Of a DNA stretch of 43,940 nucleotides, positions 4,288 to 34,677 are shown in pieces. The DNA is taken from NCBI GenBank assembly GCA_050259015.1, contig JBLMZV010000017.1:1-43940 (forward strand), in the 5' to 3' direction. Position 1 is the first letter of the stretch; each line of letters begins with the position of its first letter. The translations under genes were made by a program, and so were the position numbers. This DNA comes from Candidatus Saccharimonadota bacterium. GTDB lineage: Bacteria; Patescibacteriota; Doudnabacteria; UBA920; O2-02-FULL-48-8. The notes beneath the pieces are model-generated. The model was not told the DNA's origin. It did not search any database and was given only the letters and a program-made list of their open reading frames with translations.

Positions 4288-4980
4288 CTACCTTGAATTA
4301 TTTTCCTGTAACCGAAGCTCTCTCTGTCCTCGCGCTTCGATGATCTGTTTCACAAACAAAAACGTTTTACGGTGAAACGGAGTCGCTCCTAATTCCACCA
4401 AAGCTCTTTTATGAAACAGCGTCGGATAGCCCTTATGCTTATCGAAACCGTAAAGAGGAAATTGCTCGTGGAGCTGTTTCATGAACCTATCCCTGGCGAC
4501 CTTGGCGACAATCGAAGCGGCGGCGATGGAAAGAATTTTGGAATCTCCGCCGATCACCGGTTCCTGCGGAACTTCCTTAAAACCCTTCAGCATCCAGATC
4601 CCGTCCAAAAAAATAAAATCCGGTTTCATTTTTTTTAATCCCTCAACCGACCGCTCCATCGCCAGCATGCTCGCCTGATGGATATTGATCTCATCGATTG
4701 TTTCATGCGAAACCAAGCCGACCGCAAAATCCAACGCATTGTCCTCGATGAACGGCAACAATTGCTCGCGTTCTTTTTCGTTCACGGTTTTTGAATCGCG
4801 GACGCGGTACCACCATTTATTTTTGCTGCGCTGCCTGCCGATCGAATCAGGATCAAGAATCACGGTCGCGGCCACCACCGGTCCCGCAAGCGGCGCAACG
4901 CCGACCTCGTCGCAACCGGCGACGCGCAAAAAACCGGCTGCGTATTTTTCCATTTCTTTTTTGTAGGTCGGGAATTTCAT
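4288..4980 (-). CDS. rnhB: ribonuclease HII
   Basis: GCDEVGVAPLAGPVVAATV, ...SKILSIAAASIVAKV..., ...GYP. 230 aa. Confidence 0.9.
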   Translation of the reverse strand: MKFPTYKKEMEKYAAGFLRVAGCDEVGVAPLAGPVVAATVILDPDSIGRQRSKNKWWYRVRDSKTVNEKEREQLLPFIEDNALDFAVGLVSHETIDEINIHQASMLAMERSVEGLKKMKPDFIFLDGIWMLKGFKEVPQEPVIGGDSKILSIAAASIVAKVARDRFMKQLHEQFPLYGFDKHKGYPTLFHKRALVELGATPFHRKTFLFVKQIIEARGQRELRLQENNSR

Positions 4981-7358: not shown

Positions 7359-7448
7359 GATCAAAGGATAACAAAAAACCGCCTTCCTGGCGATTTGAAC
7401 TCTGCCTGCACGCCCTCCACGCGCCCGCATCTATTATAATCTTGCATT

Positions 7449-7490
7449 TGGTCGGGGTGCAGGGAATTGAACCCTGTCTACACGCACCCC
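7449..7490 (-). pseudogene. exact copy of the 3' half of tRNA-Pro (anticodon loop through ACCA)
   Basis: 7446-7489 is identical to 7512-7555 (44 nt). Confidence 0.85.
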
Positions 7491-7514
7491 GCTCGCACCT
7501 ATTTATCTCATATT

Positions 7515-7588
7515 TGGTCGGGGTGCAGGGAATTGAACCCTGTCTACACGCACCCGAAGCGTGCGTACTACCGTCATACTCCACCCCG
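7515..7588 (-). tRNA. tRNA-Pro (anticodon CGG), CCA encoded
   Basis: Acceptor CGGGGUG/CACCCCG, anticodon arm CACGC-UUCGGGU-GCGUG, T arm CAGGG-UUCAAUU-CCCUG. Confidence 0.85.
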
Positions 7589-7620
7589 AACAAATATGAA
7601 ACAGATAATGTGCTGCAAGC

Positions 7621-7680
7621 AGGCGTGCGCAAGACTGTCCGAAGGACAGTCAGTACCGTCATACTCCACCCCGAACAAAT
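7621..7680 (-). pseudogene. 5'-half copy of tRNA-Pro with an inserted UUCG hairpin
   Basis: 7654-7680 is identical to 7569-7595 (5' flank plus positions 1-20). An 8-bp hairpin lies at 7633-7651. GCACGC-CU (position 26, anticodon-stem 5' strand, C32, U33) follows at 7628-7621. Confidence 0.75.
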
Positions 7681-7699
7681 GCAAAACCAAAATAGAAAT

Positions 7700-7811
7700 T
7701 GGAGGGTTGGCATGCGCCAGCTGCCTAAAAGGCAGCGAATACCGTAATACCCCACCCCCGAACAAATGCAAAACAAATATCTTGTAGTGCGGGGCAGGCC
7801 TGCGCCAACCC
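7700..7811 (-). other. tRNA-like shell enclosing a degenerate tRNA-Pro 5' fragment
   Basis: The ends GGGUUGG (7811-7805) and CCAACCC-U-CCA (7710-7700) are complementary. It has an anticodon-arm-like hairpin GCUGC-CUUUUAG-GCAGC (7736-7720) and no T arm. Confidence 0.45.
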
Positions 7812-8300: not shown

Positions 8301-9608
8301 ATGTTTCACGTGAAACATATCCTTCATAACCTAAGATTACACCGACTTTTGTTTCTGACCTTCCTGCTGACCGTTCCGTTTCAGACCAGAATCATCTACA
8401 ACAAGCCGCAGGCCCTGATCGGTGACACGGTTTCATATTACCTGGCAATCATGGTATATCTATCGGATCTGCTGTTTGTTTCTGCCTTGTTGTCCTGGTT
8501 ATTTACCGATTTTAACAAAAGTTTCGCAAAATCAAGGGTTTTTTGGCTTTGCTTGCTTGCAGCGGCTTTCCCACTAATATCTGTGTTTCACGTGCAACAA
8601 ATGGGTTTATTCCTTTTTGGATGGCTGAAATGGGTTGAGCTAATGGCCATTATTGTCTATATTTCCTGCAATTTTAACAGAAAATCAGAAATCCTGGGGA
8701 TTTATTGGGTCGTTTTCTTAAGCGGGATCTTCCAAGCCGTTATCGCCATCTTACAGTTTCACGTGCAACATGGTTTGGGTTTGACCTGGCTCGGAGAGTA
8801 TGTTTCACCACTTGGAACCCCAGGTTTAGCTACGATCGATGTTTTGGGCCAAAAAGTTCTACGGGCATATGGAACGTTTTCACATCCCAATGTGCTGGCT
8901 GGATTTTTGACCGTATCCTTTATCGCTGGACTGGACTTGGTTTCACGTGGAACCATCCGTACGAAACTTTTTGTTTCACTTGGGATCCTTACCCTTATCT
9001 TCGGTTTGTTCCTTAGTTTTTCCCGGGCAGCCTGGTTAGCCGCAGCTTTGTCAACGATTGCTTACTTTTACCAGTTCTTGAAAACCAGAAATTATCTGAC
9101 CGCGAAAATTATGACCATCCTGCTCATTGTTTCATGTGGAACAATCTGGCTGGGGTTTCATGACTTCATTGTTTCACGTGCAACGGACCTGAACAATTCC
9201 AAAGCAGTCTCATATCGGACCGATTTTAACGCCCAAGCTGTTACCATCTGGAGGCAATATCCGTTTACCGGTGCAGGACTCAACAACTACGTGCCAGCTT
9301 TGGAAACCATGAAACCCGGTTTGGCCGGGTGGCAGTATCAGCCGCCTCACAATATCTTCCTGTTGCTCGGAGTCGAAACCGGCATCATCGGCTCATTGCT
9401 CTTGCTTGTCCTCGTAGGATTTTTGGTTCGTTTCACGTGGAACCGTAAAACTGAGCATTCATTCCTGGTCCTGACTTGCCTGGCTTCTTTTGTGATTCTG
9501 GGCCTGTTCGACCATTATCTCTTGACCATCCAGCAGGGGATGCTCATGCTCGGATTAATCCTTGGGCTGGCTGCGATTTTGCCGGAGCAGGCGAATGAGG
9601 TAAAATAA
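8301..9608 (+). CDS. O-antigen ligase / Wzy-family polytopic membrane protein
   Basis: At least 10 TM segments, with FSRAAWLAAALS and PPHNIFLLLGVETGIIG (Wzy_C-like). Confidence 0.8.
   Translation: MFHVKHILHNLRLHRLLFLTFLLTVPFQTRIIYNKPQALIGDTVSYYLAIMVYLSDLLFVSALLSWLFTDFNKSFAKSRVFWLCLLAAAFPLISVFHVQQMGLFLFGWLKWVELMAIIVYISCNFNRKSEILGIYWVVFLSGIFQAVIAILQFHVQHGLGLTWLGEYVSPLGTPGLATIDVLGQKVLRAYGTFSHPNVLAGFLTVSFIAGLDLVSRGTIRTKLFVSLGILTLIFGLFLSFSRAAWLAAALSTIAYFYQFLKTRNYLTAKIMTILLIVSCGTIWLGFHDFIVSRATDLNNSKAVSYRTDFNAQAVTIWRQYPFTGAGLNNYVPALETMKPGLAGWQYQPPHNIFLLLGVETGIIGSLLLLVLVGFLVRFTWNRKTEHSFLVLTCLASFVILGLFDHYLLTIQQGMLMLGLILGLAAILPEQANEVK
8303..9443. repeat. intragenic array of the palindrome GTTTCACGTGNAAC
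   Basis: Strong copies start at 8303, 8585, 8756, 8940, 9129, 9171 and 9430. Degenerate copies start at 8802, 8973 and 9155. Confidence 0.9.
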
Positions 9609-9631: not shown

Positions 9632-10948
9632 ATGAAACAACTGCTCAAAAAATTGTTTCCCGAAAGATTATATCTGTGGTTCCATTACCTGAAGGCTTTG
9701 CTTGCCGCCGCGGTTTACCGCTGGCCTTCGCGAAGACTTTACGTCATCGGCATCACCGGAACAAAGGGCAAAACCTCGGCCGCCAACTTCGTGTGGTCCG
9801 TGCTCAATGCGGCGAAACTCAAAACTGGACTGATCGGCACGGCCAACATCCGGATGGGCGACAAGGAAACCATGAACGAATATCACATGACCATGCCCGG
9901 GCCGTTCGTGATCCAAAAAATCCTGAGAACCATGGTTAAAGAAGGATGCACCCACGTGGTCATGGAGGCTACATCCGAGGGCATGAAACTTTCCCGCCAC
10001 ATCGGCATCGATTTCGACTGCGCGATCTTCACGAATCTGACCCCGGAACATCTGCCGTCGCACGGCGGCAGTTTCGATAACTACAAACAGGCCAAAGCCA
10101 AGCTATTCAAGAGCCTGAAGGGCCACCGCAAGACCATCAGGGGAGAGAACATCGAATCCGGCAGCATCACGAATTTCGACGACGAGCACCAGAGGTTCTA
10201 CAAGCAGTTCCCGGCCGACAGGAAAATCACGTACGGCCTGCAGCAGGGCGCGGATCTCAGGGCGACGGAGATTAAGGAAAACGTGACGGGCGTCGATTTC
10301 AGGATCGGCACCTTAAATTTTCACCTCAACATGCTCGGCAAATTCAATGTCCTGAACGCCTTACCCGCGATCGCGGCCGGAAGACTGCTCGGGCTTCCCG
10401 AAGACAGGATCAGGCAGGGGATTGCCGCGCTGAAACTCATTCCCGGACGGATGGAGGTCATAGACGCCGGCCAGAACTTTACAACCATCGTCGATTACGC
10501 CCACGAAAAGGTGAGCATGAACCTGCTTTTGGACGCGGGGCGCGGCATGGCGACGGAAGGGGCTAAGGTGATCGTGCTGCTTGGAGCCGAAGGCGGGGGA
10601 CGCGACAAGGCCAAGCGCAGCCACATGGGCGAGGCGGCGGCCAAAAAAGCGGACATCGTCATCTGCTCCAACGTGGACCCGTACGAAGACGATCCCACAC
10701 CCATCGTGGAAGACATCGCGATAGTCGCCGAACAGCACGGGAAGAAAAGGGGATTGGACCTGTTCGTGATCGAAGACCGCCGCGAAGGAATCAGGAAAGC
10801 CTTGTCCTTGGCCAAGCCTAAGGACATCGTGCTCATCACAGGCAAGGGCGCGGAGCAGACCATGATCATCGGAGGCAAAAGCATTCCCTGGGACGACAGG
10901 GAAGTGGTCAGGGAGGAACTGATGAAACTGACAGTCAACCAAAATTAA
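9632..10948 (+). CDS. Mur ligase family protein (MurE-like UDP-MurNAc-tripeptide synthetase, short N-terminus)
   Basis: GITGTKGKTS P-loop, ...MEATSEG..., ...TNLTPEHL..., ...IVDYAH. Only about 35 aa precede the P-loop. The DNPR-equivalent motif reads VDPY. Confidence 0.75.
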   Translation: MKQLLKKLFPERLYLWFHYLKALLAAAVYRWPSRRLYVIGITGTKGKTSAANFVWSVLNAAKLKTGLIGTANIRMGDKETMNEYHMTMPGPFVIQKILRTMVKEGCTHVVMEATSEGMKLSRHIGIDFDCAIFTNLTPEHLPSHGGSFDNYKQAKAKLFKSLKGHRKTIRGENIESGSITNFDDEHQRFYKQFPADRKITYGLQQGADLRATEIKENVTGVDFRIGTLNFHLNMLGKFNVLNALPAIAAGRLLGLPEDRIRQGIAALKLIPGRMEVIDAGQNFTTIVDYAHEKVSMNLLLDAGRGMATEGAKVIVLLGAEGGGRDKAKRSHMGEAAAKKADIVICSNVDPYEDDPTPIVEDIAIVAEQHGKKRGLDLFVIEDRREGIRKALSLAKPKDIVLITGKGAEQTMIIGGKSIPWDDREVVREELMKLTVNQN

Positions 10949-12010: not shown

Positions 12011-12042
12011 GAAAGTTGCGTTTAGTTCTTTACATCCTGCTT

Positions 12043-12070
12043 ATTATAGCCGATTTCCCGGATTTTTCAA
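12043..12070 (-). promoter_or_regulatory. promoter TTGAAA-16-TATAAT driving the 61-aa ORF and tRNA-Ala
   Basis: Its -35 hexamer (12065-12070) reads TTTCAA on the plus strand. There it also serves as the -35 of a TTTCAA-16-TATAAT promoter for the DUF4446 gene. Confidence 0.55.
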
Positions 12071-12117
12071 ACCCAAGCCTTTCATATATAATAGCTTTGA
12101 GAATTGAAGCGCAAAAA

Positions 12118-12582
12118 ATGAACCAAACATATCTGCTGTGGGGCGCGGGCATCTTATCGGTCATCTCTCTGATTGCGGCGATCTTCACCTCCAGAAGGCT
12201 TGCCCGCCTGGACCGCGTCCGCAAGGAGTTCTTCCAGGGCGACGTGAACAAGGACCTGGAACAGATCCTGGTGGACCAGAACCGGTTGATAACGAAGCTC
12301 ACCTCGGATCTCGAGAACCTGCACATGCAGACTCAAGACCTGTTCCTCCTTAACAAGAATAACATCCAGAAAATCGGGTTCATCCGGTACAACCCGTTCG
12401 ACGATGCGGGCGGCAACATCAGTTTCGCCCTGTCGTTACTAAACGCCCACAATGACGGCGTCGTGATCTCGTCCCTGCATGGACGCGACGGCACGCGCAT
12501 GTACGCCAAGGCAATCAAGGCGGGGGAGTCCGAATCCAAACTGACCGAAGAAGAAATTAAGGCAATCGAAGATGCTAAATAA
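12118..12582 (+). CDS. DUF4446 family protein
   Basis: IGFIRYNPFDDAGGNISFALSLLNAHNDGVVISSLHGRDGTRMYAK. Start set at MNQTYLL, downstream of the promoter. Confidence 0.8.
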   Translation: MNQTYLLWGAGILSVISLIAAIFTSRRLARLDRVRKEFFQGDVNKDLEQILVDQNRLITKLTSDLENLHMQTQDLFLLNKNNIQKIGFIRYNPFDDAGGNISFALSLLNAHNDGVVISSLHGRDGTRMYAKAIKAGESESKLTEEEIKAIEDAK

Positions 12583-12970
12583 AAAAACGGCCGGCCGGCC
12601 GGGGGAAACCTACCCCGAGACCATAGTGTCGGCAGGCATGAGAATCGAAGGAGAGCTTAAGAGCAACGGGGACATAAAGATCGACGGCATCATCACGGGC
12701 AAGGTCCACACCTCCCAGGACCTGCTGGTCGGACCGAACGCCCAGATCGACGCGGACCTTATCGCCCTGAACGCGGTGATCGCGGGTACGGTGAAGGGGA
12801 ACGTGACGGTCAAGAATTCCCTCCATCTGGAAAGTTCCGCCCGGATCATGGGCAACATAAGTTGCGGGACGCTCGGGATATCCGAAGGGGCGTACTTCTC
12901 GGGAGCCTGTCGGATGCAGGAACCCAAACAGATGCAGGCCGCGGACGCGGAAGACGAAGAGGAGAAATAA
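12572..12970 (+). CDS. bactofilin (polymer-forming cytoskeletal protein)
   Basis: Beta-helical repeats: IEGELKSNGDIKIDGIITGKV...VIAGTVKGNVTV...ARIMGNIS. Confidence 0.85.
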   Translation: MLNKKTAGRPGETYPETIVSAGMRIEGELKSNGDIKIDGIITGKVHTSQDLLVGPNAQIDADLIALNAVIAGTVKGNVTVKNSLHLESSARIMGNISCGTLGISEGAYFSGACRMQEPKQMQAADAEDEEEK

Positions 12971-12994
12971 AATCCTCTTTTATTTTCGATCAAT

Positions 12995-13846
12995 ATGTAT
13001 TACTACATCATCGATCCCTCGAAACTCAGCCAAAAATCCTTTGACCGGGTGCAGAACGAGCTTTATTCCTGCCTGGCCGAATACCGGATATCCGGAGAGA
13101 CCAGCCGGGTGACCAGCCTAAGGACCATTCCGCAGCTCACGGAGCTCGCTTTTTCACACGGGGTAAAAACCCTCGTGGCGGTAGGCAATGACGAAACCCT
13201 GCAGGAAGTTATTTCCGCGGTCAACGGACGGGAGGTGACCATCGGATACATCCCGCTGTTCCAGACCGAACTGGCCGCCATCTTAGGGCTCAAAAGCATT
13301 GACGGCGCCTGCAAGACCATCGCCGCCCGCCGGGTGGAGATGCTCGATACCGGCGTAGCCGGAGGCGTGCCGTTCCTCAGCAGACTGACGTTCGGACTGT
13401 CTTCCGATGCCGATTTCGGATTCCTGGGCATGGGTCTGTTGGGAAAACTCGGAGACCCGCCGGCCTTCGAGGTAAAATTCTCCGCGGACGGCAAATACCA
13501 CGGATCGCTGCAGGTGATCGCCGGGGCTATCCTGAACACGCGCGATGCGCGCGACGGCGCGTGCCGGGGAGAGGGGATCGCCAATCCCACCGACGGCATG
13601 TTCGACGTGCTGCTTTTGCCGACCCTGACCCGCTATCAGATATTCCAGAACCGCCGCCATATCCAGGAAGGCTGTTTCGAGAGAGTGCCGGGATCTTCGT
13701 TACTGCATCTGAAAAGGCTGGAGATCCTAAGCCCCGAAGGCCTGCCCTTGAAGTCCGGCAATAAAGCCGTGACCAAGACGCCGGCGATCGTGGAGGTTAA
13801 GCCCAAGACCTTAAAGATCATCGTGGGGCGGGACAGGACGTTTTAA
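12995..13846 (+). CDS. diacylglycerol/lipid kinase family protein (YegS/BmrU-like)
   Basis: DAGK catalytic-domain pattern: ...LVAVGNDETLQEVISAVNG... Confidence 0.75.
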   Translation: MYYYIIDPSKLSQKSFDRVQNELYSCLAEYRISGETSRVTSLRTIPQLTELAFSHGVKTLVAVGNDETLQEVISAVNGREVTIGYIPLFQTELAAILGLKSIDGACKTIAARRVEMLDTGVAGGVPFLSRLTFGLSSDADFGFLGMGLLGKLGDPPAFEVKFSADGKYHGSLQVIAGAILNTRDARDGACRGEGIANPTDGMFDVLLLPTLTRYQIFQNRRHIQEGCFERVPGSSLLHLKRLEILSPEGLPLKSGNKAVTKTPAIVEVKPKTLKIIVGRDRTF

Positions 13847-27613: not shown

Positions 27614-28810
27614 ATGCTATACCTTGTCGCGGGGGGAGTGCTTGCATATTTCATCTTGGCGCTTAAGAAGCCGGTTCCGGCCGCAGGGTTGCTCCTGGGG
27701 CTGGCGCCGGCTTATTTAGTCCGCCTCCGGATATTCGGGATTCCGACCACCCTTTTGGAACTGCTGCTTCTGGCTTTCATTCTGGCGGTCGTCCTGACGA
27801 GCTCCAAAGGCCGCTACAGCCGTTTGTTTAGGAAACTCAGGCCGGTTTCCCTTCCCCTTGTCCTGTTTGTCCTGGCCGCGATAATTTCAACTGCGCTCTC
27901 TCCTGAAAAATCCAAGGCCGTGGGCGAACTGAAGGCTTTTTTTGTCGAACCGATATTGTTGTTCGGGGCGTTCCTGATGGTCCTGGAAAATAAGGAGCAA
28001 GTTAGGCAGCTGCTGAAGTGGCTGTTCGGAGCGGCAATCGCCGTTTCCGTCTTCGGCATCGCTCAATACTTTACCGGTTTTCTTTTGCCCATACGGTTTT
28101 GGGGATACGGCCTGGAACCGCGCCGCATCAGCTCTTTCTTCGACTACCCTAACGCGTTGGCCCTTTATTTGGCCCCGCTGGCTGCGCTATATCTGCACCT
28201 GCTTCTCGAAAAAATCTTCAGGCCGGGCGCCTGGTTCGGCTGGAGCCTGATGGTTGTCGCCTTGGGGCTGACATTTTCCCGCGGGGGATGGCTCGGGCTT
28301 GCGGGTGCCGCCTTCGTCGTGCTTGCGCTCAAGTTCTCGTTTAAGCGAACCGTCCTCGTAGCCGGATGCTTGCTGGCGCTGCTTTTGATTTCGCCCCTAA
28401 CCCGCGTCCGGATATTCTCCGCGTTCCAGGATCCGTCCTCCCTGGCCCACCAGGAACTGCTGTCGGCCGGTTGGCAGGAAGTGAAGTCCTCTCCGATTCT
28501 GGGAAACGGTCTCTATGGCTTCCGCACGACGCTTGCCCAAGCCAATTTCACGGGTGAGATCCTAAACTATCCCCACGATATCTTTCTCAATTTCTGGCTG
28601 GAAACCGGGCTCTTGGGCCTGCTGTCTTTTGTCGCCGTAAGCCTCATGGCGGTTTTTTTGGCCATCAGAAAACCCACCGTATTCCGGTGGGCGGCGGTTG
28701 CGTATCTGATCGCTTTATGGCTGCATGGCCTGGTGGACGTTCCTTATTTCAAGAATGACCTGTCTGTCCTGTTCTGGTTCGTAATAGCGCTATCTCTGTC
28801 GGACGACTAA
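27614..28810 (+). CDS. O-antigen ligase / Wzy-family membrane protein (second copy)
   Basis: FSRGGWLGLAGAAF, YPHDIFLNFWLETGLLG, and multiple TM segments. Confidence 0.8.
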   Translation: MLYLVAGGVLAYFILALKKPVPAAGLLLGLAPAYLVRLRIFGIPTTLLELLLLAFILAVVLTSSKGRYSRLFRKLRPVSLPLVLFVLAAIISTALSPEKSKAVGELKAFFVEPILLFGAFLMVLENKEQVRQLLKWLFGAAIAVSVFGIAQYFTGFLLPIRFWGYGLEPRRISSFFDYPNALALYLAPLAALYLHLLLEKIFRPGAWFGWSLMVVALGLTFSRGGWLGLAGAAFVVLALKFSFKRTVLVAGCLLALLLISPLTRVRIFSAFQDPSSLAHQELLSAGWQEVKSSPILGNGLYGFRTTLAQANFTGEILNYPHDIFLNFWLETGLLGLLSFVAVSLMAVFLAIRKPTVFRWAAVAYLIALWLHGLVDVPYFKNDLSVLFWFVIALSLSDD

Positions 28811-28813
28811 GTT

Positions 28814-29320
28814 CTAAGAGTTCTCGATGAACGTGAAAGGTTCGTCGGCCTTCGAGGCCTTCGAGCCTTTATTTTTTACCACGATCCTGCGGTTAGGATC
28901 TTTTCCGGTGCTTTCGGATGACAAATCCGAATACAGGGAAAGGTAATTATGGATAATCCTTCTTTCGTAGGCCGGCATGGGCGAAAGGCTTACGCTCTGC
29001 CCCGATTCCCTGACCTGGTGCGCGGCCTTCCTGGCCAGCTCCTTAAGATAGATAACCCGCTTGTCGCGGTAATCATCGATGTCGATGCCGAAGGAAAATT
29101 TTTCATCCACCAAAGCCTTGCGGGCGAACAGGCGGACGATATGCTGCAGGGACTCGAGCGTGGCGCCCTGCTTGCCGATCAGAAGCTGGGCGTCTTTGCA
29201 GCGGACATTGAAGACCACCCGGCCTTCCTCAGCCCGCTCATGAATCTCGGTTTCGAATCCCATCTTCCCCAAAAGCTCCGCGATCAGGGCCTTCAATTTT
29301 TCGTTATTATTTGAGTCCAT
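28814..29320 (-). CDS. jag: Jag/KhpB-like RNA-binding protein (KH and R3H domains)
   Basis: R3H motif ERRIIHNYLS, and synteny with yidC. Confidence 0.8.
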   Translation of the reverse strand: MDSNNNEKLKALIAELLGKMGFETEIHERAEEGRVVFNVRCKDAQLLIGKQGATLESLQHIVRLFARKALVDEKFSFGIDIDDYRDKRVIYLKELARKAAHQVRESGQSVSLSPMPAYERRIIHNYLSLYSDLSSESTGKDPNRRIVVKNKGSKASKADEPFTFIENS

Positions 29321-30005
29321 ACTTCACCTCCCGTTCATCTGACTTTAATAGATAGTATTGCTGCGCGATGCCGAACAGGGTGGTCACGATCCAATAAAGC
29401 GTCAGCCCTGCCGGGAACTTGATGCCTAAGAATACCGTCAGCAGCGGAAACATGTAAAGGGTCTGGACCTGGAGCATCTTCGCGGTCGGATCCTTTGACG
29501 CGGTCTTGGGCAGCTGCAACCGGCCCTGCAGGTATTGCAGCAAACCGGCGATCACGCCCATGTAGACATTGGGGTGGGAGAGGTTCAGCCAGTGCAGGAA
29601 CATCGGGTCGATCTGGGCGGGGTGGGGGACGAAACTGTAAAGCCCCGCTAAAGCCTTGCCGTTGAGGCTCCGGATAAACACCTGGTATAAGGCGATCAGG
29701 ATCGGCAGTTGAATCAACAGCGGAAGACAGGAGCTTAGGGGGTTGATCTTGTGGGTCTGATAAAGTTCCATCAAAGCCTTAGCCTGCTGTTCCTTATCGT
29801 CTTTATGCTTTTCCTTGATGGCGTCCATCTTGGGCTGCAGCTCGGTCAGAGCCTTCTGATGCCTTAAAGACTTCTGAAAGGAGGGTAAAAGCAGCAGACG
29901 GATGATTACCGTCAGGATGATTATGACCAGGCCGATGTCCGGGATATAGTGGTAAAAAAACACCAACAGGTTGAGGAGGGGATAGACTAAGATCGTGTTA
30001 AACAT
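29307..30005 (-). CDS. yidC: membrane protein insertase YidC
   Basis: Short YidC/Oxa1 core (LLPSFQKSLRHQKA...INPLSSCLPLLIQLPI). Confidence 0.9.
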   Translation of the reverse strand: MFNTILVYPLLNLLVFFYHYIPDIGLVIIILTVIIRLLLLPSFQKSLRHQKALTELQPKMDAIKEKHKDDKEQQAKALMELYQTHKINPLSSCLPLLIQLPILIALYQVFIRSLNGKALAGLYSFVPHPAQIDPMFLHWLNLSHPNVYMGVIAGLLQYLQGRLQLPKTASKDPTAKMLQVQTLYMFPLLTVFLGIKFPAGLTLYWIVTTLFGIAQQYYLLKSDEREVKYGLK

Positions 30006-30008
30006 ATT

Positions 30009-30266
30009 TTATGGCAAATCGATTCCGCCCAGGCTATTGGGGGTGCAGGCAAGCACCCGCTTAATGATCTTGGGGAGCCCGATCAGGCCCTGGGCTTTAA
30101 GCACACTTGAAGCATATACCGAACAGGTTGGATAGAATTTGCAATAGCCGTAAGGGAATAGAAACCTTAGCGGTCCGTGATCCAAAGATAAGGTGTGCCG
30201 GTAGATCCAAAGCAGGAAAATAAGGGGGAGAGCCGCGATTTTATTGAGGAATTTTAACGTTTCCAT
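30009..30266 (-). CDS. yidD: membrane protein insertion efficiency factor YidD
   Basis: CKFYPTCSVYA motif. Confidence 0.9.
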   Translation of the reverse strand: METLKFLNKIAALPLIFLLWIYRHTLSLDHGPLRFLFPYGYCKFYPTCSVYASSVLKAQGLIGLPKIIKRVLACTPNSLGGIDLP

Positions 30267-30592
30267 AGGTTGGCCTTCCCGCTTAGGGTCAAGAATTCCC
30301 GTTCCAGATCAGGGAATCTCAAGAAAAGAGCTTTTTTCCCTGGAAAAACCAATAAATCAAGGGGCTTGAGCTGCTGCTGGTGCTTAAGAAACAGGGTTTT
30401 TAGCCTGCGTTTGATCTTGTTGCGGTCGACCACCTTGGGGAAGACCTTTTTGGGGACAATAAAACCAAAACGAGGCTTGTTTTGGTTAGTATTTACGGCA
30501 ATCCGAAGCTTCAAGGCAGTGGTATAGAACGGCCGACTGCCTTGAAACCGGCTAAAATCTTGGGAATTTTTAAGTAATACTAACTTATTCAT
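30254..30592 (-). CDS. rnpA: ribonuclease P protein component
   Basis: Basic 112-aa protein (RFGFIVPKKVFPKVVDRNKIKRRLK), in rpmH-rnpA synteny. Confidence 0.85.
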   Translation of the reverse strand: MNKLVLLKNSQDFSRFQGSRPFYTTALKLRIAVNTNQNKPRFGFIVPKKVFPKVVDRNKIKRRLKTLFLKHQQQLKPLDLLVFPGKKALFLRFPDLEREFLTLSGKANLWKR

Positions 30593-30597
30593 ACGGT

Positions 30598-30732
30598 CTA
30601 AACCGTAAGACGCTTGCGGCTCTTCTGCCTCCGCCTTGCCAAAACCGCTCGACCGGTCCGGGTCTTCATCCTGGTCCGGAAACCATGAACGCGCTTCCGG
30701 TGGACCTTCTTGGGATTATAGGAGGGTTTCAT
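30598..30732 (-). CDS. rpmH: 50S ribosomal protein L34 (44 aa, below the ORF-track cutoff)
   Basis: Own translation: [53 protein letters not shown]. Confidence 0.9.
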
Positions 30733-30763
30733 GTAGCTCCTTAATGAATTATTTTACTCCGAT

Positions 30764-30792
30764 ATTATACTGGATTGTGCCGCTTTTGTCAC
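30764..30792 (-). promoter_or_regulatory. rpmH operon promoter (GTGACA-17-TATAAT)
   Basis: Hexamers read on the minus strand. Confidence 0.55.
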
Positions 30793-30885
30793 CAGTTTCC
30801 GGGTGTGTACACCCTATGCACCAGCATTCCACAGGATATTAACATTGACCCAATTTTTTGGCTTATATTAGCCAAAAAACCAGTA

Positions 30886-30914
30886 TTTACATGTTGATAA
30901 CTTACTGATAAAAT
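30886..30914 (+). promoter_or_regulatory. dnaA promoter (TTTACA-17-TAAAAT) with a DnaA-box-like TGTTGATAA in the spacer
   Basis: The box at 30892-30900 matches TGTGGATAA at 8 of 9 positions. Confidence 0.55.
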
Positions 30915-30943
30915 GGTTAGGACTTAATTTTTCTGCAAAACTA

Positions 30944-32278
30944 ATGACAAACCAACAGCTTTGGCAAGCGATCCTCGGAAACCTGGAACTGACTTTAAGC
31001 AAGGCAAACTTTACGACGTGGTTTAAAAACACCTCGATTATCGAGAAAAGTGACATAGGGATCGTGATCGGCGTACCGAACGCCTTCACCAAAGAGTGGT
31101 TGCAGAATAAATATCACCAGGAAATCCTCAAGGCGCTCAAGACCATCGCCCCTGAAATCAAAGAGTTAAAATACCAGATCGTAAGCCCGGCCTTTACCCC
31201 CTCCACCCCGGTAATCAAGGAAATGGCCCGGATACAGCCCAAAAAGCAGGAAAACCAGAACCTAAACCCCAAATATACCTTCGAAACCTTCATTGTAGGG
31301 TCACATAACCAACTGGCCCACGCAGCCAGCCAGGCAGTCAGCAAGAAACCCGGGCAAATCTACAACCCGTTGTTTATTTACGGGGGAGTCGGACTCGGCA
31401 AGACCCATCTCATGCAGGCCGTGGGCACCGAAGTCCTAAAAAGGAATCCGGAAGCCAAGATTTTATACGTCACATCCGAGCGCTTTACCAACGAATTCGT
31501 CCAGGCCCTGTCTCAGGGGAAGGCGGATTCTTTCAAATCCATTTACCGCAATGTGGATGTCCTGTTGGTGGACGATATCCAGTTCCTGGCCGGGCGGGAA
31601 GGGACCCAGGAAGAATTTTTCCATACTTTTAACGCCCTCCACCAGAACAATAAACAGGTGGTCATGACTTCCGACCGCCTGCCCAAGGAAATCCCGGCCA
31701 TCGAAGAACGCCTGGTTTCCCGGTTCGAATGGGGGATGATCGCGGATATCCAACCGCCGGATTTGGAAACCCGGTTGGCGATTTTACGCACCAAAGCCAA
31801 GGAAAAGAATTACAACATCGAGCCGGAAATACTCACTTACATCGCGGAAACCATCCAAAGCAACATCCGGGAATTGGAGGGGGCCTTAAACCGGCTGATG
31901 GTCTACTGCCAGCTCAATAACACCAAACCCACAATAGATCAGGTAAAAAGTATTTTGGTAAACGTGATAACTCCGCCGAAAAAACGGGGTGTCAGCGCCA
32001 AAAAGATCATTGAGGTGGTTTCCGATTTTTACAACGTTTTGCCGGAAGATCTGCTGAAACAGTCAAGAAAGAAGGAGTACGTCAACCCCAGACAGATTGC
32101 TATGTACATTATCCGAAAGGAGTTGGAAACATCCCTGCCTTCCATTGGGGAATTCTTCGGCGGTCGCGACCACACCACGGTAATCCACGCGATCGACAAG
32201 ATTGAACGCTGTATCAAGGAACGTAGCGGCCTCAAGCAGGAGATTGAGTTGATCAAAGAACGTTTGTACCTGCGTTAG
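30944..32278 (+). CDS. dnaA: chromosomal replication initiator protein DnaA
   Basis: GGVGLGKTHL Walker A, LLVDDIQF, C-terminal DNA-binding domain (GGRDHTTVIHA). Confidence 0.95.
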   Translation: MTNQQLWQAILGNLELTLSKANFTTWFKNTSIIEKSDIGIVIGVPNAFTKEWLQNKYHQEILKALKTIAPEIKELKYQIVSPAFTPSTPVIKEMARIQPKKQENQNLNPKYTFETFIVGSHNQLAHAASQAVSKKPGQIYNPLFIYGGVGLGKTHLMQAVGTEVLKRNPEAKILYVTSERFTNEFVQALSQGKADSFKSIYRNVDVLLVDDIQFLAGREGTQEEFFHTFNALHQNNKQVVMTSDRLPKEIPAIEERLVSRFEWGMIADIQPPDLETRLAILRTKAKEKNYNIEPEILTYIAETIQSNIRELEGALNRLMVYCQLNNTKPTIDQVKSILVNVITPPKKRGVSAKKIIEVVSDFYNVLPEDLLKQSRKKEYVNPRQIAMYIIRKELETSLPSIGEFFGGRDHTTVIHAIDKIERCIKERSGLKQEIELIKERLYLR

Positions 32279-32507
32279 TTGTTGGTAAGCTGTAGAGGAC
32301 ATCTTAAACAACTGTTCAGAACAGACGATAAAAAAATCGAATTAAAAAAATCTCTCCGATTATCAAAACCTTACCCACACCTTACATACAACTTATGGTT
32401 AAAGAGATTAGTGCAAATTAAACCAAAACCCCAGACAAACCAAACTAAAATAAACAAAGTACACAAATCCCCAACTTCTATTATCATTATCTTCTTTATA
32501 TACTTGT
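32279..32507. other. AT-rich dnaA-dnaN intergenic region: oriC candidate
   Basis: About 30% GC. TTACCCACA at 32372-32380 (8/9 to the DnaA box), TTATCAAAA at 32361-32369, and A/T tracts. Confidence 0.5.
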
Positions 32508-33605
32508 ATGAAGTTAATATGCACTAAGGACAACTTGAGAAAAGGTTTGTTTGCGGTTAGTCGGGTTGTGGGAGTGGGGAACCCTTTGCAGGTCCTGAAT
32601 AATATTTTAGTTAAGACGGATCAGGGAAGGATTAAGCTTTCTTCCACCAATCTGGAAATTGGAGTGAATACATGGGTGGGTGGAAAAATCGAAGAAGAAG
32701 GCGCTTTGACCATCCCCGCCAAACTGATTAACGAGTATATAAACAACCTCCCGACGGATAAGGTGGTTTTGGAAACCAAAGAAAACACCTTGATGGTGGA
32801 ATCGGACAACTACCACACGAATATCAAAGGGTTGTCGTCCGAAGATTTCCCTTTAATCCCCCAGGTTTCCGATGAACCATACGCTAAAATCGACTCAGTT
32901 GAGTTGATTGGCGCTTTTTCTGAAACTATTTGGGCTACTGCCCAGAACGAAACCCAACCTGAACTTTCCGGGGTATTCCTGGGATTTGATGAGGATAAGC
33001 TTAGGGTGGCGGCAACCGACCGGTACCGTTTGGCTGAACGGCAAGCCCTGCTTAAGGAACCAGTAAGACAGCCGCGGGAAGTGATTGTGCCTTACCGGAC
33101 CGTGAGCGAACTTTATAAGATCATGTCCGGCAGCCGGGGCGAAGTGGAAATATATTTTTCGGAGAGCCAGGTATTGTTCAAGTTCGATGAAACCGAATTG
33201 ATTTCCCGGCTGATCGACGGCCAATACCCGCCCTACCAGGAAATCATACCCAAGGAATTCAAAAGCGAGGCGGTTCTGTCCCGCGAGGAGCTGATTCACG
33301 CCTTGAAGGCGACGGCCCTGTTTGCGCCTGACTCCAACAACATCCAGCTGGAAATTAAGGAAGGTGATGGGGTGGTGGTTGCGGCCTCTTCCGTTTCAGC
33401 CGGCGAAAATACCACCAAAGTGGCGGCTAAGATTACCGGCGAACCCAACTCCGCAATCTTCAATTACCGCTATCTGCTGGATTGCCTGAACAACCTGAAG
33501 GAGCCGGAGGTTACGGTAAAGATGATTTCCGATGTTTCTCCGGCGATGGTGGTGCCGCAGGGCCGGGACAACTATCTGTATATAGTGATGCCGATCAAAA
33601 TATAG
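32508..33605 (+). CDS. dnaN: DNA polymerase III subunit beta
   Basis: 365 aa, three-domain sliding-clamp pattern, downstream of dnaA. Confidence 0.9.
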   Translation: MKLICTKDNLRKGLFAVSRVVGVGNPLQVLNNILVKTDQGRIKLSSTNLEIGVNTWVGGKIEEEGALTIPAKLINEYINNLPTDKVVLETKENTLMVESDNYHTNIKGLSSEDFPLIPQVSDEPYAKIDSVELIGAFSETIWATAQNETQPELSGVFLGFDEDKLRVAATDRYRLAERQALLKEPVRQPREVIVPYRTVSELYKIMSGSRGEVEIYFSESQVLFKFDETELISRLIDGQYPPYQEIIPKEFKSEAVLSREELIHALKATALFAPDSNNIQLEIKEGDGVVVAASSVSAGENTTKVAAKITGEPNSAIFNYRYLLDCLNNLKEPEVTVKMISDVSPAMVVPQGRDNYLYIVMPIKI

Positions 33606-33612
33606 AAAAGTC

Positions 33613-34677
33613 ATGCTGACGAGGTTGGAATTGGAAAATTTCAGAAGCTATGAAAAAATCGGAGTCGATTGCGGCTCCGATTTGGTTTTGGTGCTGGGCG
33701 AGAACGCGGCGGGTAAAACCAACTTGCTGGAAGCAGTGTATTACCTGAATACCCTCGAGTCGTTCCGTTCGCCGGATCCGCTGGTGGTCAGGCGGGGAGC
33801 GGGCCATTTCCGCGTATCCGGCAGGTTCGACGACGGTCGGGAAGCGGAGGTGGTGGTGCAGACTTCTCCCGTTACCAGACGGGGTTACCGGATCGATAAA
33901 CAGAAAACCAGACGTTCCGACTGGTCCATAAACCCGGTGGTATTGTTTGTGCCGCAGGATTTGAATCTGTTTTTCCTCGGACCGGCCAACCGGAGGGAAT
34001 TCGTCAACCGAATCTTAAGCCAGGTGAACCCCGGGTATCGGACCGACCTTTCCGAACTGACCCAGGTCCTGAAGCAAAAAACGGCCTTACTGGAGGCGAT
34101 TCGGGACGGTGTGGCGGACAGGGCGGAACTTTCGTTCTGGAACGATAGGCTTGCGGATATCAGCCTCCGGATATACGAAGGCAGGAGCGAGTTCGCCTCG
34201 TTCGTCAACAGCCGCTTCCCGGAAGTCTACGCCCGGATTACCGACCTCCCGGGATCGTTCAGTCTGGAATACCGGCATATGAAGAAAACTGAGAAGTCAG
34301 AATTGATGGCACATCTGACGGAGCATATCGAGGCGGAGGTGGCGTCCGGAACCAACCTGATCGGTCCGCATCGGGATGATTACCGGCTTTTGAAGGACGG
34401 GGTGGAGGTGATCCACCTGTCCTCGCAGGGAGAACTCCGCTCCCAGATTCTGGCGCTAAAGCTTATAGAGGCGGCTTTCCTGGAGGGAAGAAGCGGCAGG
34501 AAGGCGACCGTGCTTCTGGATGACGTCTTCTCCGAACTGGATGAGATGCGCCGCGGCCGGCTGATGGAATTTTTCGCGGAAAACCAGGTCTTCATCACCA
34601 CCACGGAAGAACATCACCTGCCGGGTTTCAAGCGGGAGTTTATGGTGTTAAGGCTCAGCCAGAGCCTCCTTAACTGA
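33613..34677 (+). CDS. recF: DNA replication/repair protein RecF
   Basis: GENAAGKTNLLEA Walker A, SQGELR signature, LLDDVFSELD Walker B. Confidence 0.9.
   Translation: MLTRLELENFRSYEKIGVDCGSDLVLVLGENAAGKTNLLEAVYYLNTLESFRSPDPLVVRRGAGHFRVSGRFDDGREAEVVVQTSPVTRRGYRIDKQKTRRSDWSINPVVLFVPQDLNLFFLGPANRREFVNRILSQVNPGYRTDLSELTQVLKQKTALLEAIRDGVADRAELSFWNDRLADISLRIYEGRSEFASFVNSRFPEVYARITDLPGSFSLEYRHMKKTEKSELMAHLTEHIEAEVASGTNLIGPHRDDYRLLKDGVEVIHLSSQGELRSQILALKLIEAAFLEGRSGRKATVLLDDVFSELDEMRRGRLMEFFAENQVFITTTEEHHLPGFKREFMVLRLSQSLLN

Follow-up and report, generated by a model that had tools for sequence, protein, structure and literature searches.

A cluster of probable parS sites within a single Wzy_C-like gene near the replication origin of a Patescibacteria chromosome

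A repeated palindrome confined to one gene

The DNA considered in this study, called the window below, is the complete 43,940-bp contig JBLMZV010000017.1 of a metagenome-assembled genome (MAG) labelled Candidatus Saccharibacteria at NCBI. The subject is a palindrome, GTTTCACGTGNAAC, that recurs within one gene of the contig, encoding a membrane protein of the Wzy_C family. I will refer to its seven strong copies as parS-1 to parS-7, after the chromosomal partition site with which they are compared later, and will give for each the number of orthologous genes, out of 21 described in the next section, that have a site at the same aligned position. The gene and the sites, the latter taken as 16-mers, are as follows.

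8301-9608, forward strand: host gene, encoding a polytopic Wzy_C / O-antigen-ligase-like membrane protein of 435 aa (Pfam PF04932, E = 1.9e-19)
8302-8317: parS-1, TGTTTCACGTGAAACA, a perfect 16-bp palindrome (0 mismatches) overlapping the ATG at 8301; 15 of 21 orthologues
8584-8599: parS-2, TGTTTCACGTGCAACA, 1 mismatch, peptide VFHVQQ; 20 of 21 orthologues, the most conserved position
8755-8770: parS-3, AGTTTCACGTGCAACA, 2 mismatches, peptide QFHVQH; 17 of 21 orthologues
8939-8954: parS-4, GGTTTCACGTGGAACC, 14-nt core exact, 3 mismatches to the 16-mer, peptide LVSRGT; about 12 of 21 orthologues
8972-8987: decayed site, TGTTTCACTTGGGATC, 5 mismatches, one half-site kept; the same column intact (at most 3 mismatches) in five orthologues
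9128-9143: parS-5, TGTTTCATGTGGAACA, CATGTG variant, 2 mismatches to the 16-mer, peptide IVSCGT; 11 of 21 orthologues
9170-9185: parS-6, TGTTTCACGTGCAACG, 2 mismatches, peptide IVSRAT; 4 of 21 orthologues, a younger or patchier position
9429-9444: parS-7, CGTTTCACGTGGAACC, core exact, 3 mismatches to the 16-mer, peptide RFTWNR; 5 of 21 orthologues

Read directly from the window, GTTTCACGTGNAAC occurs exactly at 8303, 8585, 8756, 8940, 9171, and 9430, and a seventh copy, with the single mismatch that gives CATGTG, lies at 9129. All seven are where an initial annotation, made from the letters of the window, had placed them. When up to two mismatches are allowed on both strands, the 14-mer finds 16 matches in the window against 0.95 expected, a count that is reached by none of 100 dinucleotide-preserving shuffles. 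The longer word TGTTTCACGTGAAACA, with up to three mismatches, finds 8 matches against 0.20 expected (again 0 of 100 shuffles), and 7 of those 8 lie inside the one open reading frame (ORF) at 8301-9608. The seven sites in order have 0, 1, 2, 3, 2, 2, and 3 mismatches to this 16-mer.

The strong copies span 1.14 kb at irregular spacings of 42 to 282 nt, and the array is, as the initial annotation had it, specific to the gene within the contig; it is not a CRISPR array or any form of tandem repeat. The further claim that no full copy exists elsewhere in the 44 kb also holds: the paralogous Wzy_C gene at 27614-28810 has no site of the 16-mer at up to three mismatches, and the half-site GTTTCAC, present 9 times in the host gene, is found 6 times in the remaining 42.6 kb, at background as the annotation had stated. 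The sole 16-mer match outside the host gene is a weak one, the parS-like TGTTTCATGCGAAACC at 4699-4714, which has 3 mismatches, lies within a gene for RNase HII, and is probably there by chance.

The seven copies fall in reading phases 2, 2, 2, 0, 0, 0, and 1, so that all three frames are in use and the same word is translated as FHV(K/Q), VS(R/C)(G/A)T, or FTWN, the peptides that had been read from the sequence at the outset. The degenerate position of the word encodes K, Q, or E in some contexts and G, A, or E in others. The 18-nt palindrome ATGTTTCACGTGAAACAT was likewise correctly reported to contain a start codon: it lies at 8301-8318 and holds the ATG of the longest ORF (MFHVKH...). NCBI places the start 16 codons downstream, at the TTG at 8349 (419 aa, MFLTFLL...), so an exact look-up of the 435-aa product found no match. 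Most gene calls in the orthologues begin, as the longest ORF does, at the ATG inside the palindrome. Which of the two starts is chosen determines whether parS-1 is coding or lies in the 5' leader, just upstream of the start.

A scan for terminators found none in the region, and when Rfam covariance models were run over the window, tRNAs alone reached the gathering score, the palindromes being assigned to no structured RNA family.

Conservation of the sites and selection on the DNA word

The host protein belongs to a tight clade of about 52 protein homologues (E <= 1e-60), with 26 residues invariant across 51 members. At least three of the signature peptides encoded by the sites are present in 41 of the 52 clade proteins and, among the matches listed, in 0 of 68 more distant Wzy_C homologues. 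Many of the clade proteins begin MFHVKH or MFHVKQ. At the level of DNA, the window was compared to orthologues at 52% and 40% identity and to 80 additional genome loci, and the statistics on sites come from 21 orthologous Wzy_C-like genes, 37-52% identical in protein and mostly from MAGs of Doudnabacteria.

The initial annotation had proposed that the motif be sought in orthologous Wzy genes, and sites were found in these 21 relatives. Each gene has up to 9 sites, typically 3 to 7, and the flanks (10 kb on either side) have almost none. Taken together, the 21 loci contain 80 sites in 28.5 kb of gene (2.81 per kb) as compared to 5 in 320 kb of flanks (0.016 per kb), a difference of about 180-fold. 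These counts cover the window and the sampled loci, and the sampling of loci was centred on Wzy_C genes, which bears on any preference that might be claimed genome-wide.

A codon alignment reveals five shared positions, those of parS-1 (at the start codon) through parS-5, occupied in 15, 20, 17, about 12, and 11 of the 21 orthologues. At parS-2, nucleotide positions 3, 4, 6, 9-11, and 13-15 are invariant among the orthologues; the parS-3 position bears the identical nucleotide string in 15 of its 17 occupied orthologues; and the parS-4 position has perfect copies in three loci (L001, L016, and L017). Younger positions are shared by 4 or 5 orthologues and others are singletons specific to one lineage, which indicates a turnover of sites through gain and loss. 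The alignment also separates the three degenerate copies that the initial annotation had proposed. That at 8973 is a genuine site in decay, since the same column is intact in L005, L006, L012, L016, and L017, while those at 8802 and 9155 correspond to a site in no orthologue, and 8802 holds just a half-site.

The conservation acts on the DNA word, as the initial annotation had maintained, and this can be seen in the choice of synonymous codons. Cells of the alignment were picked for the amino acid they hold in a given column, irrespective of any match to the motif, and the remainder of these genes served as the reference for each amino acid:

Val as GTG, in the FHV columns: 50 of 50 in sites, 21% elsewhere (p = 6e-31)
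His as CAC: 79% in sites, 40% elsewhere (p = 9e-8)
Val as GTT: 16 of 16 in sites, 44% elsewhere (p = 3e-6)
Ser as TCA: 75% in sites, 32% elsewhere (p = 1e-4)
Thr as ACA: 79% in sites, 32% elsewhere (p = 6e-4)

Columns of Gly, Pro, Arg, and Leu that are invariant in the protein use 3 to 5 codons each. Pairwise identity at third codon positions averages 0.77 in the columns of the sites and 0.34 elsewhere. The fixation of synonymous codons and the identity at third positions show that selection acts on the DNA word. It had been noted beforehand that the same peptides encoded by unrelated codons would favor an explanation at the level of protein; the comparison was made, and its outcome speaks against that explanation.

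The coding sequence nonetheless leaves its mark on the sites. Every copy in the frame of parS-7 has TGG (Trp) through a G at position 12, because the perfect palindrome would read as the stop codon TGA in that frame. Every copy at the position of parS-5 (IVSCGT) has T at position 8, giving Cys (TGT) rather than Arg (CGT) and the core CATGTG, and the constancy of this base indicates that coding constraint shapes the site. Homologues free of the motif have ordinary residues in the same columns (QFHVQH is matched by QFIKQE, LFHVKH by IFVAFS, IVSCGT by LVATAV), from which it follows that the internal sites were written by substitution and were not inserted. The site at the start codon alone corresponds to a short N-terminal extension relative to the motif-free homologues. 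Selection now maintains protein and DNA word alike, and where they conflict the result is a departure from the perfect palindrome.

Intact sites are scarce or missing in some members of the clade. In L011 none is left at up to two mismatches, L019 has one, and L020 belongs to the same group, as does P0046; P0044 lacks the signature peptides. These lineages (L011, L019, L020, P0044, and P0046) have apparently lost the centromere by decay or carry it at another locus.

A second group of Patescibacteria Wzy_C genes, 26-33% identical to that of the window, also has clusters of mostly perfect parS sites:

L030, 3450-4802
L032, 486-3234
L038, 1346-2707
L053, 8764-9888
L062, 9859-10636
L065, 10264-11014
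L061, 10939-12032

These share columns 590, 685, and 241, which are distinct from the columns of the main clade, and almost all are in the frame that reads VSRET. Some of the clusters spill over into the downstream intergenic region or downstream genes. Since the positions are not homologous to those of the main clade, the association of parS with Wzy_C appears to have arisen at least twice, and the second group suggests an association of centromere sites with this gene family that is either independent or much older.

Identity of the sites and the alternatives

The chromosomal parS consensus, the site at which ParB (Spo0J) is loaded, is TGTTNCACGTGAAACA (PMC7022226). The repeated word GTTTCACGTGNAAC is the core of that consensus, its variable base is the N of the consensus read from the other strand, and the seven sites match the 16-mer TGTTTCACGTGAAACA within the 0 to 3 mismatches given above. 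The agreement extends to the pattern of degeneracy: variation amongst the 80 orthologous sites is concentrated at positions 1, 5, 8, 12, and 16, of which 5 and 12 are the N of the consensus and its mirror, and positions 2-4, 6-7, 9-11, and 13-15 are conserved at 94-100%.

Sites of this kind are characteristically located within the ori domain (PMC7022226). The window contains a block of genes typical of an origin, identified through Pfam:

28814-34677: replication-origin block, comprising jag (reverse strand), yidC (reverse), dnaA at 30944-32278 (forward), dnaN at 32508-33605 (forward), and recF at 33613-34677 (forward)

The start of dnaA is about 21.5 kb from the last parS site, and the same contig carries gyrA and 11 tRNA genes. 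GC skew changes sign at about 29-33 kb of the window, where GC content dips to 0.46-0.49, the lowest of the contig, in the segments that flank dnaA (30005-30944 and 32278-32508). With origin genes and the turn in skew on the same contig, the cluster lies inside the origin domain. The seven palindromes are thus very probably chromosomal parS sites and together the centromere of this chromosome. By analogy with the systems in which parS has been studied, there is strong reason to expect that ParB is the protein that binds them; the events downstream of binding would follow by the same analogy.

Several observations weigh against this identification. In most bacteria that have been studied, parS lies close to parAB. 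Here the 43.9-kb contig and 83 related loci (1.37 Mb in all), searched to about 10 kb from the gene, yielded neither a ParB nor a ParA gene, which is a genuine gap in the case. Two of the sites, parS-4 and parS-7, have 3 mismatches to the 16-mer, and parS-5 has the core CATGTG, deviations that may bear on the affinity of ParB. Finally, DnaA boxes of the E. coli type are not enriched near dnaA (8 one-mismatch matches in the window, with 6 expected), so that oriC can be located from gene order and skew only, and this lineage may use a DnaA box different from TTATCCACA.

The search for a partner relied on the patterns GERRxRA and KGGxGKT and on phmmer with Spo0J and Soj as baits. The baits recover the solved structures of ParB, Noc, KorB, and Soj/MinD at 1e-13 to 1e-121, which makes the negative result credible. 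Relaxed Pfam scans of the unannotated proteins of the window gave no candidate resembling ParB or having a helix-turn-helix (HTH), and six-frame translation of the window and the loci L001-L083 (1.37 Mb) gave no deviant Walker ATPase of the ParA/MinD type, just 53 P-loop motifs of the form GxxGxGK[ST]. A ParAB system is nonetheless encoded in the phylum Patescibacteria: a supplement on the cultivated Saccharibacterium Southlakia epibionticum lists a ParA-like gene and a ParB gene (PF02195 and PF17762) at about 180 kb, with transposon-sequencing (Tn-seq) fitness classes of GD/ES/ES (growth-defect or essential) at three time points (PMC10633639 supplement). Apart from that gene table, a search of the literature, within the library searched, found no paper linking parS to the Candidate Phyla Radiation (CPR)/Patescibacteria.

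Noc-binding sites (NBS) were considered and rejected. The NBS palindrome is ATTTCCCGGGAAAT, with a scattered distribution away from the terminus, whereas the core here is CACGTG with arms of the parS type, and no gene of the Noc/ParB family was detected in the window and the 83 loci.

The initial annotation left the function of the palindromes among several candidates. Its suggestion of an operator or decoy array for a dimeric protein pointed in the right direction, insofar as the sites are an array of binding sites, and missed the identity with parS/ParB and the presence of the origin genes. Its three other candidates, recombination targets, methylation targets, and RPE-like insertions, find no support. 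That the palindromes serve a dimeric DNA-binding protein other than ParB, as operators or for its titration, is quite unlikely; such a protein might regulate a Wzy_C-Mur-ligase operon, one candidate being a winged-helix regulator from a family well represented in these genomes. This reading would accord with the lack of a ParB gene nearby, with the overlap of the first site with the start codon and the weak promoter-like hexamers directly upstream of it, and with two distant loci (L024, 8605-9480; L025, 8662-9637) in which a winged-helix gene of the TrmB family (about 274-298 aa) stands directly upstream of a Wzy_C paralogue, with a parS-like site of 2 mismatches on either side of it; one of these sites encodes NVPRGT where the ORF begins. 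However, the word in question is the pan-bacterial parS consensus down to the positions that are degenerate, and it would be unparsimonious for an independent protein to have converged on the exact site of ParB. Furthermore, six of the seven sites are buried in coding sequence, as far as 1.1 kb from any promoter, the cluster is proximal to the origin, and no HTH candidate is conserved beside the gene. A cluster of targets for methylation or for restriction-modification is very improbable, even though CACGTG is typical of the palindromes recognized by type II systems and six copies occur in 1.2 kb: the conserved word is 14-16 nt long, its flanks GTTT and AAAC varying no more than the core does, and one conserved site has CATGTG in place of that core. 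Outside the gene CACGTG is at background (5 in 42.6 kb), and the total for the window, 11 with 6.9 expected, is reached by 11 of 100 shuffles, so that the bare core is neither avoided nor enriched. Pfam scans of the larger ORFs of the window found no methyltransferase family.

Identical palindromes within one gene related to the cell surface could also serve as recombination targets, in the manner of a shufflon, through which a surface-polysaccharide polymerase is varied by inversion or deletion, a proposal that has hardly any probability left. The 21 orthologues are collinear and can be aligned over their full length, with no segment rearranged and the sites at matching codons; most segments between sites are not multiples of 3, as inversion without loss of frame would require; purifying selection acts on the sites as a parS word; and no recombinase family turned up in Pfam scans of the larger ORFs of the window or in the gene tables of two related loci. 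Just as remote is the idea of selfish mini-palindromes inserted in frame, similar to Rickettsia palindromic elements (RPE), or of conservation purely at the level of protein. A repeated palindrome translated in several frames, with QFHVQH, LFHVKH, and IVSCGT conserved in the consensus of the clade, would be expected from either, but the internal sites add no length and occupy ordinary columns of motif-free homologues, synonymous positions are fixed to the codon compatible with parS while protein-invariant columns use 3 to 5 codons, and one DNA word serves in all three frames.

Gene context, possible mechanism, and comparison with known centromeres

The genes that follow the cluster are these:

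9632-10948, forward strand: Mur-ligase-family gene (Pfam Mur_ligase_M and Mur_ligase_C), 23 nt downstream of the host gene
12016-12582, forward strand: DUF4446 gene (Pfam), 2.6 kb downstream of the cluster, together with the next gene listed as context only
12572-12970, forward strand: bactofilin gene (Pfam)

The Mur-ligase-family gene is a conserved partner of the host gene, with synteny in most of the orthologous loci. The DUF4446 and bactofilin genes form a triad with a YegS/DAGK-like gene (12016-13846 in the window). This triad, located 1.5-10 kb downstream of the gene with the parS sites, is kept in nearly all orthologous loci with enough flanking sequence (L001, L002, and most of L004-L022). 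It also adjoins Wzy_C genes that have no parS (L048, L068, L070, and L071). DUF4446 proteins are 55-88% identical across the clade, as compared to 37-52% for the Wzy-like protein. The triad may be a centromere-associated cytoskeletal module. A search with the DUF4446 protein, as a bridge to some ParB-linked context, returned proteins of the same clade only and no new context.

If the cluster works as parS does in other bacteria, canonical ParB (Spo0J) dimers encoded elsewhere in the genome would recognize each 16-bp site through their helix-turn-helix domains, bind CTP, close into a clamp, and slide onto neighboring DNA. One partition complex of several kb would then form about 21.5 kb from dnaA, where it would mark and move newly replicated origins, with ParA where present, and load SMC; in known systems the partition complex is segregated and recruits SMC (PMC7022226). 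Seven loading sites in 1.14 kb would make for a strong and redundant point of nucleation with a high rate of loading. The internal sites themselves arose through point substitutions in pre-existing codons of the Wzy_C-like gene.

The occurrence of parS in Wzy_C genes at least twice and the conserved DUF4446-bactofilin pair make it conceivable, although rather unlikely, that the Wzy_C-like gene is a dedicated "centromere gene" that provides a functional link between centromere and cell envelope. Co-transcriptional insertion of the polytopic protein into the membrane might tether the origin region, or occupancy by ParB, beginning from the site at the start codon, might tune envelope synthesis to the replication cycle. 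Bactofilins anchor ParB-parS in Myxococcus. A bactofilin scaffold might likewise anchor the centromere here, and could stand in for a parAB operon that has lost its linkage to the centromere.

The closest comparison is with chromosomal parS of the Bacillus subtilis type, which has the same 16-bp palindrome with the same degenerate position, is proximal to the origin, occurs in multiple copies, and can lie in coding sequence. Indeed, the first B. subtilis parS site to be described lies inside spo0J. Chromosomal ParABS systems have 1 to 10 sites scattered over tens to hundreds of kb with parAB near, whereas here seven sites occupy 1.14 kb of one gene and parAB was not found near. One to four parS sites is the usual number in bacteria (PMC3899335), but dense clusters are known. 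Myxococcus xanthus has 22-24 sites in about 3 kb, some 4 kb upstream of parA, that bind ParB in vitro (PMC3899335, PMC3778016). The M. xanthus cluster resembles the present one as a dense, multi-site centromere that tolerates variants of the consensus. The spacing is similar, with about 1 site per 140-160 bp, as is the distance of tens of kb to oriC. It differs in that it adjoins parAB and that its binding of ParB has been shown by experiment; the cluster described here, unlike that of M. xanthus, is confined to one ORF with codon-level conservation of position over a deep clade. In view of the Myxococcus cluster and the site within spo0J, neither the density of the sites nor their location in coding sequence is unprecedented.

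Caulobacter crescentus has at least 5 parS sites about 8 kb from ori, and ParB covers about 10 kb there (PMC5815017). It has in common with the present case a clustered loading zone close to the origin. Its sites are fewer, more widely spaced, and beside parAB, and essentiality and the spreading of ParB have been demonstrated there. If ParB spread about 10 kb here, as in Caulobacter, its complex would extend over the genes for Wzy_C, Mur ligase, DUF4446, and bactofilin. Plasmid centromere arrays (sopC of F, parS of P1) consist of plasmid-specific sequences that are usually tandem and intergenic. They too form one partition complex from multiple close binding sites, but the sites considered here have the chromosomal consensus, are irregularly spaced (42-282 nt), and are on a contig with dnaA, dnaN, gyrA, and 11 tRNA genes.

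The parS cluster is therefore a new example of a known system and not a new kind of element. What is new is the lineage (within the library searched), the placement of a whole multi-site centromere in one ORF with positions conserved at the level of codons, and the lack of linkage to parAB. Since the underlying mechanism is textbook ParABS, the surprise to a specialist should be moderate. On the practical side, the centromere, and hence the origin-proximal region, of many uncultivated ultra-small bacteria becomes recognizable from sequence, which helps to orient and check MAG assemblies. The genes also constitute a natural experiment in which a coding gene and a multi-copy DNA word have co-evolved in three frames, revealing both the tolerant positions of parS (1, 5, 8, 12, and 16) and the way in which coding constraints shape variants of a centromere. 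For the biology of CPR chromosomes, the questions raised are where ParB is to be found and whether segregation makes use of ParA, SMC, or the DUF4446-bactofilin pair.

One further feature of the contig lies upstream of the cluster. The tRNA-Pro gene at 7515-7588 (reverse strand) is flanked by partial duplicates of itself (window 7439-7773). Its 3' part is represented by a 51-nt copy at 7439-7489 that is 94% identical to 7505-7555, and its 5' end by three 34-nt copies, at 7569, 7654, and 7740, spaced by 85-86 nt. The partial copies look like scars of repeated integration and excision at the tRNA gene or else the result of tandem partial duplication.

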